Of a DNA stretch of 64,000 bases, positions 17,205 to 43,300 are shown one piece after another. The position numbers and the translations under genes are program-made. Under the pieces are notes generated by a model. That model did not search any database, was not told where the DNA came from, and saw nothing but the letters and a program-made list of their open reading frames with translations. The DNA is taken from the NCBI GenBank assembly GCA_013239625.1, contig MU054738.1:7163855-7227854 (forward strand), in the 5' to 3' direction. Source of the stretch: Lama guanicoe (lineage: Eukaryota). How positions within the stretch are numbered: position 1 is the first letter of the stretch; each line of letters begins with the position of its first letter.

Positions 17205-20200
17205 CTGCAGGGAGAAAGCTTCATTACTGTCTGGCTTCTTTGTAAGTTGAATTAAAAGAAAAGGGACCAACACCAAACTTCCTGACTTTCAGAAATATTT
17301 CTTTCCTCCCAACATATACTTAACCTCCCTTTCCCATACCCCTCGTCATGCTGAGCTGACCCGTGCCGTTTCCTTTGTCATGAAGTAAAACGAGAAAGAG
17401 ATGTTGTCGGCGTGTATTTCATGTGGCGTCGGACAATCACAAGATGCTCTGGGCGCACACACGCCGCCGCCTCCCCCAAGCCCTCCACCTGTGATGCCCA
17501 GTTCCCGATTCTCTTGCGTCACACGCGATGGAACAAGCTGAAGCCTCGCTCAGCGTCATCAGAGCAGTCTTCTCCCCGCACAAATGAACTTTACGTCAAC
17601 CGCAAAACGTCTTTTGTTCTTTTACTTTGGGAGGATAGCTTGGCACGTTTGATGCTCTTGTGAATGACAGCTATTGCCAGCAACTTGAGAAAGGGCTTTG
17701 TAGACTGATTAGCATTTGGAGAGGAAAAATTATGTGACGCTCAGGTTAAGGGGTTATCCCAGAACGGCACGGAAGCAAGGCAGTGGTGCTTTCGGTTGCC
17801 TTTTGTCATTTTCGTTCAAGAGTTGAAAATAGTTGCATTAACGTACTATCACCCGTCACCACCATGGCAGAGCGATTCGAACAGCCCGCCCACCACAGTC
17901 TCCCAGGTCATGCAGAAGGAACAGAAGGAAAAACCTTGATACACAGACCGCAGCCACAACATGAAGCCGAGCAGGCATGCTCCCCATGCACCCGCAGACA
18001 CGCCTGGTCTCAGGGAAGCTGGGTTTTCTATTATGAACGTAAAGTTGAAAATGTTTCGTGGGGGGCACTTATAAACCCAGACACTTTCATTGTATTCTGT
18101 GTTATTTTCAGATTTCTGAAATCTTGGAAAAACACTGTGTAAGGAAGCCACTGGCACTGTGACGTCAGTAAAGTAAAGAGAGGTCAACGTCTCCGTACGT
18201 GGGAAATGCAAAGCGCAGGGGTCACCAGGAGAGAAAGTGCTCCTTTTTCCTCAGGCAGAAATCTGATTCTTACAGGCAATGAACACGGATATACGGTCTG
18301 TATAATTTCCGAATAATAAACCCAGGAGGCAGAACGTTATTCTATCTTATGCCAAACAGATATTTTGAAAAGTGAGAAGATGAATTGGGATTTAAAGGAG
18401 AAACACTAAAAAAAAAAAAGGCATTTTATATTTGATGGTTACTGAGCACGTTAACCGTGAATTCTATGAAGACATTCTCTAGGGTTTGGTACATTAATAA
18501 GCCAACTTGCTTCAGCAAAATACTGATTCTTTAAAAAAAAAATCTGAGCTGCTAAACACAAGATGTTTTCAGGCTTAAGAGCAACGTATGGTGACATTTA
18601 CCTAAAGAAGCTTTATCATGGTATTGCTGTTTGATAACGCAATGATGCCAAAGATAGACAGCAAGAAAGGAGCTCAGATCTGTGAACGTATTAGGTGCAC
18701 AAGCCTTTTGCTCTGTGGGAGGGAGGAGGGTGAGGAGAAAGCGGCGGTGGGCGGCTTGGGCAGAACTGAAGGGGTCTTACAGGAAGGGCGGGGCCCTGAC
18801 ACGCTGTCCTGTTGAGAGGGAATCCCTGGTTCTCCACGTGGTCCTTAAGTGACCGACACCCTTGCCGCCTTCGCACTGAGATGAGCGCTTATGGCAGGCC
18901 AGTAAGGGGGCACCCGGGAGGCGGGAGTCTCGTGACGGGTCCTCGTTTGTAGGTAAACGATCTCCCCTTCGATCTCGGAAACAGGACTGTTTCTACAGGT
19001 CCAGGAACATCTGGCAGAGGGTCAGTCCAGCTGTTTTGGGAAAAGGCTGGTAATGAAGGTGGATGAATTAGGAAGATCCTAATTCTTACTAACTTTCTTT
19101 CTGAAACGTCTCAATTCTTACGTCGAAGTGGTAACTATCACCCAGTCTCATGGGTTTCTCTGGGGAATTAAGACACGTGCACCACTGACGCCAAGTAGAA
19201 AAAGACACAAAAATGTGCAGAAATGACTTCTGGCTTCTCCCACTGCTGCTGCCCCGAGCGAGCGTCCCCAGCTTTATCTGAGATTCTATCCTGAGTGATT
19301 TTATCTTAAATGTTTGGGGAAACGGATTCATGTGACTGAAAACTTATTATGCAAAAAGTATTTAATTTTTACAACAGGAGAGAACTGAAGTGGAGATCCT
19401 TAACTGAAATTGGTTAAGTTTCCAAAAATGTCCTTTAATTCTGCTGTGATCAAGAAGGTTCTTTATATTGCTGGTGAGAAGATTTTTTTTAAGTAAGACG
19501 GGGGTAATCACATTGTAATCTTTGATATAAACTCTTAAATATGAAAGAAAAAATTCTTTGCTATAAACTGTTAACTAGACTCAGATGGAAGTCTGAGAGG
19601 GGAAGGAGAAGAAACCCCGGGAGGGGCCGCAGTGAACATCAAACTGAAAGCCAGACCCTGGCATTTAGAAAAGGGAAGGAGCCCGGAGGTCTGGCCCCCG
19701 CTGCTCGAGGCAGGCCAGCACTCACACAGCCCCCGGGAGCCTGGGAGAAAAGAGAGGGTTTCAGGTCCCGCCAGAAGCACTGAATTCAAAGAACCTGCAT
19801 TTAAGTCGGATCTACAGGTAAACGTGAGAAGCTCTGGTCTCCGTCACCCTCCAAGCCTGCTCAGCACTGGGGCTCAGTGTCAGTCCAAGTGCCTGCTTCA
19901 GGGTCAGGAGAAGCGGCTTTCTCTCCAGTGCAAGGTCAGGAACGCCTCCTTCATGACGTCCACCAGCGCCCTGGCCCGGCACAGGGAGCGGGCCCCTTCT
20001 GGCGGGCGCTGGGTCAGTCACCTAACGTTCTCTGGCAGTGTGCCCAGCACCGTCACCGCGGTGTGGCGAGACCGTCCTCGGCAGCTAAGCCCAGTGGGGA
20101 GGGGCTGAGCTCGGGACGGAAAATGCCAGCTGAGAGCCAACTGAGGAAAACGGGGCTTTGAGAGGAAGACAGAAGGGGGTGGAGCAGAATGAGTCTCCTC

Positions 20201-21905: not shown

Positions 21906-22012
21906 CTGGAAAGCGGACCTTCTGGGAGGCTCCTCCTCTTCTCTCTTCAGCTCCTCCTCCTCCTCCTCTTCGCTATCCGTTTCAAACAAATAATAATCTC
22001 CACTCCTGACCA
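21906..22012 (-). CDS. PIEZO2: PIEZO2 coding exon (~E34, latch), MVRSGDYYLFETDSEEEEEEELKREEEEPPRRSAFQ
   Basis: 107 nt, phase 1->0; conserved SGDYYLFE motif; CAG|gtaacc donor. Confidence 0.96.
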
Positions 22013-25000
22013 CTAAGCAAAACAAAATATTTACTTACTTCTTGGAAGAGACAGAAGACAGCTGGGGGCTTATTATCTTAACGATATGCCCTCCCTCCCC
22101 CAAAGACACACAGATTATTCATCAAAGGACCAAGGACCACAGGAAGAGACAGGAGGAGGAGGCAGGAGGTGAAGGGGCTCGCTCCGGCTGTGCCACGAGG
22201 GGCTGGCGGGACGGGGGCTGCACAGCCCAGGCCTGGTCTCTGCCTCGGGGAGGGGGGCGGGGGGAGCTGGCCAGGGCTGGGTTCAGCCAGCATTTCTTCC
22301 TCCTTCATGTCAATTTATCACAGATGCATCAGATCCACTCTGCAGCAGCTGACTTTGTGACTGAGATGGCCAAAATAACGGAAAACTCTCATCGGGTCAC
22401 GATTCAGCAATTTGGGTCCTCTAGACAAAGCCAAAGCAAAGCAGTGGCTCTGGTGCTATCTGAGGGTCCAAAGGGCTGAAGCACAGCCAGGCGGGACGGT
22501 TCAGGGCCAAGAACCAGCGTCCCCAGCCTTCCACCTCACTGTCCACTGGGCAGGCTCGGATGACAAGACACTGGGACGAGATCTGTTTAAAGAATCACAG
22601 GTGGTCACAAGGAGGAGATGGGCGGGGGGGCATCAAAAACAGAGAGACCACCGCAAAAACACCACCACCACACTCTGGCTGCTCCTCCCCGCAGGACGGG
22701 ACGGACAGAGGCACGGTGGACGCAGTCCACGCGGTTTATGCTGGGTGGCTCTGGTCAGCCGAGAGCGAGGTCCCCAGGCTTCCCGACGTTGGAGGAGACA
22801 GCACTGACTGTCAGACACAAAGCACAAGGCGTGCGGGTCGTCCTGGCCTCTCCCACATTTTCCCTGCCAGGACATACTGCACTGGGAGCAGAGAAAGCTC
22901 AAGAGCCCGAGAGCTGAAGGAACTCGAGAATCGAATCTTTCTCAGTTTGATCACTATTTAGGCTGATCAGAGAAAAGGGACCCAGCGTGTCTTCTGCGAT
23001 GCTACTGTCATTGCAGGAAAACATATTCCCGGGTTCAAGTTACATCCGCCTTTCCAAATGCGGGGGGGCTTTTGGAGGACACGACCCGAGGTCTTTAGTC
23101 ATTTTGGGGACTCATCCATTGTAAGGTAACGGGGAACCCTGGCTTGTGTAAAGTCAGTTGCCTGAATATCACTAAACACGGTCAAAAGGGAAAACATTTT
23201 GCACATGACTTCAGATGTATCTGAAGCCTCCGTCCGTGAAGACGCAGAGCGAATGAATTGGGCCTTATATCCTTGAACAGAAGCCCTGTCATTTGTTACT
23301 CGTCTTTTGAAGAACCCGGCCAGAGGGCTGGGTCCAGGCCGGAGCAAACAGGTGCAGTACAACGTAAGAGAAAGCAGGAGCCAACCAAAGCCACAGCACG
23401 ACGTCTGGCGGCGAGGACGGCCTTTAAAGTGACGCTTCGGATAAGCTCAGAGATCCGCAGGGAAGTCACGCAGACTTCAGGGCACGTGGTCATTTGGTAA
23501 AAATGGAGACTTCCCGGGTTGAACATTTTACCCTCATTATAGGCTCTTCAGTCAACAAGAGCTTGAAGTGTATTCAATCATACCTTCTCTAACTTTTTTT
23601 TCACGTGGACACCGAGTCCAAGCAGTTTTCATCATGAGCAGTCATATGTTGGTTTTGTCATTTAAAAAATGCTGCCAATTTGTATGTGACACACGGAATT
23701 AATGTATTAAAAAAAAGAAGGAAATGCTTAAAATAAGGTCTCCTAGTCCTTTGTAAAATATGGCTGAAATGAAACTAGGACATGAATGGAGAGTATTTTC
23801 TGAAGTTCCCTCTGCTCATCACAAGGACAGAAGTTCTTACATGCATGTTTGTTACAAGGACCAGCCGGCATCCGTCCACAGGACGCCGACACTGACGCTG
23901 AGCGGGACCGTGGCTCTTCAGATCCCACCACCTGCATCCCAGAAACTCAGCCCTTTAGCTCAGCTATTTGACAGCGAAGTGATGGGGCACCAAGTTAGGT
24001 GACACTGAAGTGATGGAAGGTACGATTGAACAGCAATAATGCGATCGTCTGTGTGCACACAGATGTGGAAGAGGGGGGCCTGCCACCTGCAGGCCACGTT
24101 CAGATCGCGAGTGCTCACCAGCAACAGGGACAGAGCAGCGACGCCATCGCGTCGTCAGCAGGCTTACGCACGGGGGTGCCAACTACTCACTCTTACGCTC
24201 GGCACCTCTGAGAAACACCTCTGTCAGAGCCCGTGACACAAGGGGTCAGAAAAAGGGCTTTCAACCAAGGGCTTCCGGATCTAAAGACAAGGTTTGGAAC
24301 TCGTCAGTCTACAAAATAAATCACAGGTCAGTTCCTCTCCTTTCCTTACCAGCTTGTCAAAATAATGTTTTGTAGGAAAAATTTAATGCCACGGTGAGAC
24401 TCTGATTCCAAACTATGCATCACACACATCCCTGCATTATTGCACCGGGAGGTGCTGTAACCAGGCACGTGGAGCTCACTACCAGGCTTCCAGAACCTGA
24501 CATAATGAGGGTGAAATGATCGGGAAATCTACAGTCAGTAACCTTCACGGGAAGTTCTTTCAAGGATAACCAACTTGTAAGGGGACGATCAAAGACCATA
24601 TCCAGTTCCTTCCAAGATGCAATGTTCAGCTGAGAAAAGGCGAGAACCACCAAGACTGAGGTGGGGATTTACACCGAGGGAACGGACAAGTCATTCACTA
24701 TGACCCCATCTCGCAACGGACAGGTCTCTCTAAACCGGCAAAGGGCCCTTTAAAAACAGAAGGATGGGCACAGTTTCCTTGTGACTTGATAGGAGCAGAC
24801 ACGTGGTGTTGCACTAGGGGACCACGGCCAGGCCAGCAAGCCGGTGGGAGGCAATCAGAGCCAGACAGAATGTCCAACTGCATCCTGATCTTTTGACTTG
24901 AGCAGCGGATGAAATGCAGCTCTTCATGAGGCATGCATTTTTTTAATGCCGTAATGCTAAAATTCAACATTTGGGGTTGAACTTGACGACATCCAGGCAT

Positions 25001-25913
25001 ACTGAGCAAATTTTGATGAGCAAGTTCCTGAAACTGGCTTGCTGATTTTAGAAAACGATCTCTTGGGTGACAGGCCAGACTGGAGCGCATCACCCCATGG
25101 CAACAGCATTGCAACAGACAGCGGGCTCTCCTTTGCCACGCAGAACAAGGACACCCCCGAGTTCCGCATCTCCTCCATCTTTTCCTGCGACGGAGGAGGG
25201 TGCACGACTTCACGCGGCTATCACGCTCTGCTTTTCCAGAGCTGTCTTTGGACTTTGCTCTGAACTGGTCATGGCTGAGCTGCAGGGGCCTGCGAGGCCC
25301 TGCCCCACGTGGGGCATCAGATCTGGAGTGTAGTTTTACAGCTTTCTTGAAACTGAGGAGGAGGCAGTGAGAAAGTCAATGCGTTTTAAGGCATCCTCAT
25401 CCTTAAGGTTAACACCTTGCCAAGAAACGTTACATGCAAGTGAAACTAAAGCTCTGGGAATGAGGGGAGGGGAGGCTCCTCGGCACCACGCCCAGTGCCT
25501 CACAAAGAGGGTCACAGGCACCTCGAACACAGTGATGCTCTGACGTCAGAGCCCCGGGCGGAGCTGAGGCTCGTTTTTCATCTGGGTTTTTAGCCACGGA
25601 ACAAGCACATGTCACGGAGCCCTAGACCTCAGCCCTGGGTAACAGAGAAGTCAGCTCCTCTCCCCTCTCTGAGCCCATGGATGCTGCCGGGGGCTTTCTC
25701 CAGCTGGCGCGGCGATCCGCTGGTGGCTCCACCAGACTCCGCTGTCGGGCTCAGACACCCACAGGGATCACACTTTTCCTACGCTCTGACCCCCTATCAA
25801 GTCACAAGGCTCAAACCATGCATGGGACACACAGGTCACGGGGACGCCTGAATTCTGGTCAAGGATATAAGGGTTAGAACTGACGAAATTGTAAGAGGAT
25901 CAAGGAAACCTAC

Positions 25914-25985
25914 TGGAAGCATGGTCAACCCAAGGCCGCCACCACTGCTTTTTTTTGCCCTTGGTTTTCTGTTTGTCTGCTTCTC
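25914..25985 (-). CDS. PIEZO2: PIEZO2 alternative cassette exon E33, READKQKTKGKKKQWWRPWVDHAS
   Basis: 72 nt, symmetric phase 1; ttttag| acceptor, CCA|gtaggt donor; translated by hand. Confidence 0.94.
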
Positions 25986-27013
25986 CTAAAATAAAATACG
26001 TCCAAACATTAATTCGTGTAAAGTCAGAAAACAAACTTTGAAAACCACTCTTTTAACAACTCAAATTGTCAAGCTCTAGACAAGCTGCGAAAATACATCA
26101 GAGGTCAGGAAACTACACGGACTCTGAAGCGTTCCCGCGGAGCGCGGTCGGTTTCACGAGGTAAGTATGAAGGATTCTAAGGACATTATGCCACATTTTC
26201 ACTTCCTTCTCAGTAGCTGAGGGCGTGTAAAGAAATACAATAAAGAGGGCTTATCTGTCAAAAATGCATCTCACCTTGAAATTTCCATGGAACTAACAGA
26301 AAAGAAACATCACCCATATATTACAGAACAATTTAGTGGCAAATAATTGGTTAATACGCATACATTGCAATAACTGGAGATTTTTCTTGTGATTATTTTA
26401 ATGCATGGCTGGGAAAATATAAATTTAATGTCAATGAACAGACATCATGTACCGGGGAGATACTGCACATTATTTCTCCATCCCCTTCAAGTAGGAAAGC
26501 ATGCAAATAACTTTAAAAAGACCTTTAAACTAAACTGGATATAACAAATCTATAATTTGATATAATAAATCCGTATTTCATCTTAAGTTTCATTGGAACA
26601 GACCACAATAGAATGTTATTTTAACTACTATTACTCAGATGCCTATGTATTTCTTTTCTGTGTAACATTCACAGAAACCAACCATCTTAAACACCTTCCC
26701 TAAAGGCACACACGCAGTGAAGTCACGCGCGTCGTCTTCAGCAGCACACGGCTGTGAAACGGAAGCAGGCTGTCTGCTGACTAAAGTCATCCTGCTGAAG
26801 GCGAGATGCTCGTGAAGTCATGGATTCATCAAACATGTGCTTCACGAAATAAATGCATACCGTTCACCATGGGGAACGTATAACTTGCTGAGCTAAAGAG
26901 ACACATTGATAAAATTGGCAGAACAAAAAGCAACGCCATCTGACAGCCCTGCCCAGTGCCCCGCTAAGACTCAACGCCAAGCACGCGAGGAAGAAGGAAG
27001 AGCCTCCACATAC

Positions 27014-27135
27014 TTTCGTCGTCCTCTTCAGAGAGTTTCTGCACATCCTGGCCGTCCCCTGGCTCCTGGGTCAAGCTCAGCATCCTCTCCTTACCCTTTT
27101 TGTACTTCTGCTGCCTGGCCTTGATGCGATCCATC
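27014..27135 (-). CDS. PIEZO2: PIEZO2 coding exon (~E32), MDRIKARQQKYKKGKERMLSLTQEPGDGQDVQKLSEEDDE
   Basis: 122 nt, phase 2->1; AAA|gtatgt donor. Confidence 0.96.
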
Positions 27136-43139: not shown

Positions 43140-43300
43140 CTCTTTCACGGACACCCAGATGATGTACGAGGACACGATCTTGACGATGTGCAGCTCCAGG
43201 ACCCACCACAGGGACGTCTGCAGCTTGTGGAAGCACTCCAGGAACTTCAGGAACAGCACCGTCAGCCGGTCGATCACCAGATGCCACTTGTTCCTCAGAT
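43140..43300 (-). CDS. PIEZO2: PIEZO2 coding exon (~E21), DLRNKWHLVIDRLTVLFLKFLECFHKLQTSLWWVLELHIVKIVSSYIIWVSVKE; GC donor
   Basis: 161 nt, phase 1->0; the donor must be GAG|gcaagt to keep frame with the next exon (VSLFNY). Confidence 0.93.

Follow-up and report, generated by a model that had tools for sequence, protein, structure and literature searches.

A probably cryptic 18-nt exon-like element and predicted long-range RNA helices around the lateral-plug exon of PIEZO2

Neural microexons of the SRRM3/4 type (3-27 nt) are a close known parallel to an 18-nt element in the intron before the lateral-plug exon E33 of PIEZO2. The candidate shares with them its length, AG/GT bounds, preserved reading frame and strong donor, a long stretch ahead of the acceptor that is AG-free and weakly structured, and an insertion point in a disordered protein linker. 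Neural microexons are usually deeply conserved. A UGC motif accompanies 74-79% of SRRM3/4 microexons (PMC12871342; bioRxiv 10.1101/2024.09.17.613571), whereas the candidate has a UGC only at position -49, lacks a counterpart in a fish intron and is represented in none of 331 proteins. Cryptic microexons, defined by a PSI below 10% in more than 90% of samples (bioRxiv 10.1101/2024.09.17.613571), likewise have exon-like sites but are hardly or never seen to be included, and the candidate is known here from its sequence alone.

A second comparison is offered by the known cassettes of the same gene, of which seven are described in human (E10, E18, E19, E22, E33, E35 and E40; bioRxiv 10.64898/2026.02.16.706133) and five in mouse (PMC12490864). 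Both lists derive from sensory-ganglia sequencing (Szczot 2017, cited there). The candidate resembles these cassettes in being short and in frame, and it adjoins E33. However, the known cassettes are seen in transcripts and proteins, while the candidate is found in 0/331 proteins and in neither list; in the available text of both papers no cassette is placed between E32 and E33. The initial annotation of this DNA had taken E33 for a regulated cassette equivalent to the lateral plug of PIEZO1, which is borne out by the published homology of PIEZO2 E33 with the PIEZO1 plug (PMC12490864) and by skipping of E33 in 16/331 proteins. Conductance differences among PIEZO2 isoforms have been traced to E33 (bioRxiv 10.64898/2026.02.16.706133). 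The beam-to-latch linker is disordered and structurally unresolved, its deletion approximately doubles the unitary current, and the latch residues are Y1568, L1570 and F1571 (PMC8924262, PMC6628815). The insertion point of the candidate corresponds to mouse R1538 (alignment with 6KG7, counted by hand) and falls in this linker, which limits conductance.

A third comparison concerns intronic RNA structure. PCCRs are complementary regions of at least 10 nt that lie no more than 10 kb apart and pair with an energy of -15 kcal/mol or stronger, and their catalogues contain many false positives (PMC8052449). Three predicted helices of the E33-E34 intron, termed H1, H2 and H3 below, lie within these limits of length, energy and distance; conserved arms with compensatory change, a further PCCR criterion, were found for H1 (in the fish-like contig L002) and H2 (in the bird-like contig L003). 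Like the RNA bridges of ENAH and RALGAPA1 (PMC8052449), H1-H3 consist of conserved complementary intronic arms in nested helices, and as in bridges of the ENAH/RALGAPA1 type one arm, in this case of H1, has a regulated cassette exon approximately 50 nt away. They differ from those bridges in that the PIEZO2 helices are so far sequence predictions.

The window, i.e., the whole stretch of 64,000 nt analysed here, contains 28 mapped PIEZO2 exons, all on the minus strand. Across the 26 internal exons compared, an alpaca PIEZO2 model matches the window at 1296/1296 aligned residues, and camel models show 98.8% identity, which identifies the source as a camelid. Exon numbers follow the initial annotation and the published PIEZO2 numbering; the labels E18, E19, E35 and E40 on other exons of the window are assignments that we presume to be correct. 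E32 (27014..27135, minus strand) encodes the end of the beam and the start of the beam-to-latch linker and ends in a phase-1 donor. The lateral-plug cassette E33 (72 nt, 25914..25985, minus) has a weak donor (CCA|GTAGGT) and is present in 315 of the 331 PIEZO2 proteins that span the junction. E34 (21906..22012, minus) encodes the latch. Two further short in-frame cassettes on the minus strand, presumably E18 (42 nt, 54244-54203) and E19 (33 nt, 45768-45736), each have an AG-free zone of 82 nt before the acceptor. A GC-AG intron with the donor GAG|GCAAGT is located at position 43140.

The candidate occupies positions 26275..26292 of the minus strand, in the 1028-nt phase-1 intron between E32 and E33 (between 27014 and 25985). 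An 18-nt AG…GT segment with a pyrimidine tract, a TAG acceptor and an AAG|GTGAGA donor had been reported there, and all of these features are as described. It encodes IPWKFQ and, as also claimed initially, translation stays in frame and free of stops with or without E33, one Arg being exchanged for IPWKFQG. Two splice matrices were used for scoring, of which the first was trained on the window itself (27 mapped junctions) and the second contains approximate human frequencies. The donor outscores 14/27 true donors with the window-trained matrix and 27/27 with the human one, and the acceptor 8/27 and 15/27 true acceptors, respectively. The 3' splice-site region (26293..26373, minus) comprises the pyrimidine tract, the TAG and an AG-free zone of 79 nt, which is longer than that of 26 of the 27 mapped acceptors and resembles those of E18 and E19. 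It folds less strongly than shuffled sequences (z +1.45). A branch-point-like TTAAC lies approximately at -59 from the AG (by eye, against the consensus), and the UGC at -49 is the sole one within 50 nt of the acceptor. The exon at 38177-38150 begins with PWRFKG and resembles the PWKFQG of the candidate (13/17 aligned bases), a likeness that is probably due to chance.

These features exceed chance only modestly. Within the E32-E33 intron alone, 9-42 of 1000 shuffles contain an equally good in-frame pair. Among all AG-GT pairs of 3-51 nt that are in frame and free of stops in the 56 kb of introns, the candidate ranks seventh with the window-trained and first with the human matrix, and 57/60 and 18/60 shuffles of these introns, respectively, contain an in-frame pair (3-30 nt) that is equally good. 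Score and 79-nt AG-free zone are combined in 2/60 shuffles, by a criterion that was picked after the candidate had been seen. Other high-scoring in-frame pairs on the minus strand, at 19740 (15 nt) and 58036 (33 nt), have AG-free zones of 37 and 20 nt and are probably pseudo-exons.

The initial annotation had also pointed to an RBFOX motif and an AT-rich setting. Both exist, a TGCATG at 26505-26500 (minus strand) inside an AT-rich island at 26176..26725 with a GC content as low as 0.28, but as support for the candidate they are at chance level. TGCATG occurs 23 times on the minus strand of the window and AT-rich islands of this kind number 14, so neither feature is special by itself. Two searched parts of the candidate's island are single-copy in the genome; of three other islands checked, two are single-copy too and the third contains a repeat fragment. 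We therefore rejected both the motif and the AT-richness as evidence.

Traces of use were sought in proteins. The initial annotation did not recognise the peptide from the reference protein and asked for a search of PIEZO2 isoforms; in agreement with its impression, IPWKFQ, variants of the motif and inserts of this kind are absent from all of the 331 PIEZO2 proteins that span the E32-E33/E34 junction (15 of them camelid), most of which are automated models and not independent observations. The 331 belong to 388 proteins collected by searching protein sequences in three ways and by looking up three protein clusters. One search covered proteins of up to 2000 residues (best 52 of 56 candidates), and a second contributed the best 120 of 1008 matches under a ranking that penalises inserts. 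The third contributed the best 120 of 835 matches and scored only residues past the junction. The second search was the first source of 116/331 proteins, while 215/331 were first obtained by routes without an insert penalty. The camelid cluster was covered in 15 of its 26 members, and sensory ganglia may be missing from the annotation data behind the camelid models. Two models deviate at this place in other ways: in goat (P0326) E34 is extended upstream by nine residues, likely an annotation artefact, and a gecko model (P0248) has one additional residue at the E32-E33 junction.

The candidate is likewise no annotated alternative exon of PIEZO2, as it is contained neither in the annotated isoforms examined nor in the published cassette lists. 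The word "microexon" does not occur in the available text of bioRxiv 10.64898/2026.02.16.706133. Eight supplement files of the mouse MicroExonator study (PMC7821500) do not name Piezo2, and the candidate sequence has no match in its table of 2,987 rows. A literature search on microexons in PIEZO2 listed unrelated papers, and VastDB or supplements beyond those seen may list the event. PIEZO2 is represented in a human DRG long-read supplement only by two 3' fragments, which are uninformative on the junction, and nothing on the candidate was found in the supplements of PMC10634934 and PMC11632617 or in the accessible part of PMC13232204.

Orthologous intron DNA was available from metagenome contigs, two of them fish-like (L002 and L004) and one bird-like (L003). 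These are the three matches to a pattern for E33, which had no matches among genome contigs or viral contigs; a degenerate pattern for the candidate had none in the metagenome contigs. The 278-nt fish E32-E33 intron contains no counterpart of the candidate, the best local score being equalled by 433/500 shuffles. On the upstream side of E33 the bird-like contig extends for 222 nt, and a comparison of the candidate would need 290 nt.

We consider it reasonably probable that the candidate is a cryptic exon-like element, which nearly all PIEZO2 transcripts would normally skip. Ordinary exon definition does not work for an exon as short as 18 nt, and inclusion would depend on a dedicated activator, e.g., SRRM3/4. 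The sole UGC lies 49 nt from the AG, and for this reason the element would mostly be passed over, with E32 spliced straight to E33 or E34. Because it is too short for exon definition and without a well-placed activator motif, skipping is its most likely fate. The earlier reading as a microexon is unproven, with the odds against it. That reading supposes a real, tissue-restricted microexon missed by annotation, the six mostly hydrophobic residues of which would be inserted at mouse R1538, 30 residues before the latch residue Y1568, where they would shift the plug in the lateral portal and alter conductance. We regard this as unlikely, although several features speak for it. The donor is strong and the acceptor fair, no in-frame pair of 3-51 nt in the gene scores higher by the human matrix, and the frame is kept whether or not E33 follows. 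An AG-free zone of 79 nt like those of E18 and E19 is joined to such a score in only 2/60 shuffles, and, as reported for neural microexons, the region upstream folds weakly and the branch-point-like motif is far from the acceptor. The AT-rich flank is single-copy, the linker governs conductance, and about a quarter of SRRM3/4 microexons have no UGC. Against this reading stand the absence of the peptide from 331 proteins, of the element from the fish intron, and of any entry among the published cassettes, as far as these are accessible, and in the mouse MicroExonator table. A UGC close to the AG is also lacking, and two other AT-rich islands are single-copy as well.

Alternatively, the donor may feed a stop-containing poison exon or act as a decoy that competes with E33 splicing, and thereby tune the level of PIEZO2 or the inclusion of E33 while contributing no peptide. 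Upstream acceptors combined with the same donor would give exons of 134, 210 and 383 nt, all with a stop or frameshift, and the 134-nt form scores 8.03 against 8.57 for the candidate with the human matrix; the acceptor of the 134-nt form, however, reaches only 4.27 with the window-trained matrix. The AT-rich island continues for approximately 400 nt upstream, beyond the needs of a microexon, and human introns are reported to contain conserved cryptic poison exons, but PIEZO2 is not named in one supplement of the human poison-exon paper. Overall we judge this explanation improbable. A more elaborate proposal, to which we give a slim chance, is that PIEZO2 has an eighth cassette, in which the microexon would act as a "mini-plug" of intermediate conductance in transcripts that skip E33, and the choice between full, mini and no plug would be set by a vertebrate-conserved scaffold of three RNA helices. 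If so, the Pro-Trp of the microexon would be placed eight residues before the latch, where the Pro-Trp of E33 itself stands ten residues before it.

Conservation around E33 in the fish-like and bird-like contigs is concentrated downstream of the exon, in the E33-E34 intron. Here three predicted helices have arms of 17-21 nt at distances of 1-2.6 kb, with H2 and H3 nested in H1 without crossing. The 5' arm of H1 (25852..25872, minus) begins 41 nt and ends 61 nt past the E33 donor and is conserved in the fish-like L002 and L004 and the bird-like L003; its 3' arm (23263..23283, minus), 2.58 kb downstream, is conserved in L002. The 17-nt 5' arm of H2 (25793..25809, minus) is conserved in L003 and 100% complementary to the 3' arm (24777..24793, minus), which opens a 79-nt block (24792-24715) with 81% identity in L003. 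The 5' arm of H3 (24502..24521, minus) is identical in L003 at 18/18 nt, and its 3' arm (23521..23540, minus) is complementary at 18/20 positions. The block at 24792-24715 may carry protein-binding sites; a further intronic block (24615-24593) is 87% identical in L003.

Pairing in H1 involves 19 of 21 positions, all Watson-Crick, a number reached by 0/100 shuffles, and its duplex energy is matched by 2/200 dinucleotide shuffles. The duplex energies are -26.8 kcal/mol for H1, -34.8 for H2 and -23.2 for H3. An alternative pairing of the H1 5' arm, with the beginning of E34, was discarded because it reaches -15.6 kcal/mol, against -27.2 with the arm in the intron. The 27 introns (56 kb) contain five inverted pairs with a length of 17 nt or more and a complementarity of 90% or more. 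Three of these are in the E33-E34 intron, and 0/40 shuffles contain any. The other two, with arms from 46292/45932 and 46250/46161 on the minus strand (46292-45913), lie 150-520 nt upstream of the cassette E19.

In the fish-like L002, the two H1 arms are 711 nt apart and rank first and second among its intronic matches to the window. They form 18 Watson-Crick pairs and one G-U pair around the same central C-U mismatch as in the window. One pair is doubly changed from A-U to G-C, another differs as A-U to G-U, and one mismatch has become a C-G pair. H2 is kept in the bird-like L003 with a G-C to A-U double change, so that conservation of the helices is observed in one fish-like and one bird-like contig, with one double change each for H1 and H2. 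L004 parallels L002 no further than a position ahead of the H1 3' arm, so its lack of that arm is no test. Judged by spacing, L003 ends before the positions of the 3' arms of H1 and H3.

Nothing found here ties the candidate itself to the helices, since the E32-E33 intron contains no inverted pair of the above length and complementarity and, among the 25 longest of 48 complementary pairs, none touches the candidate. The one TGCATG beside the helix arms (25822) is missing from the bird-like L003, and there is no GCATG within 300 nt past the H1 3' arm. Our literature search found no papers on intronic RNA structure in PIEZO2. Five supplements of PMC8052449 do not name the gene, and the full catalogue of that paper (916,360 pairs) may list H1-H3.

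We interpret the three predicted helices as a likely RNA bridge that helps to set E33 inclusion. H1 would close a loop of 2.6 kb that begins 41 nt past the weak E33 donor and contains H2 and H3. The effective E33-E34 intron would thereby shrink from 3.9 to approximately 1.3 kb, and the conserved distal block at 24792-24715 would be moved beside the E33 donor. Such a bridge would favour E33 inclusion wherever the binding factors are present.

If the 18-nt candidate is cryptic, as we favour, it is an ordinary element of its intron. If it is used, it adds one microexon to an already known class and, as a real microexon, would open a new axis of isoforms at the linker by which the lateral portals are gated. 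H1-H3 would be a new instance of intronic RNA structure. In the literature searched we found no cis-elements that control E33 splicing, and E33 determines the conductance and calcium permeability of PIEZO2. The conserved helices beside this exon would offer exact targets for shifting the isoforms of a channel of touch and pain.
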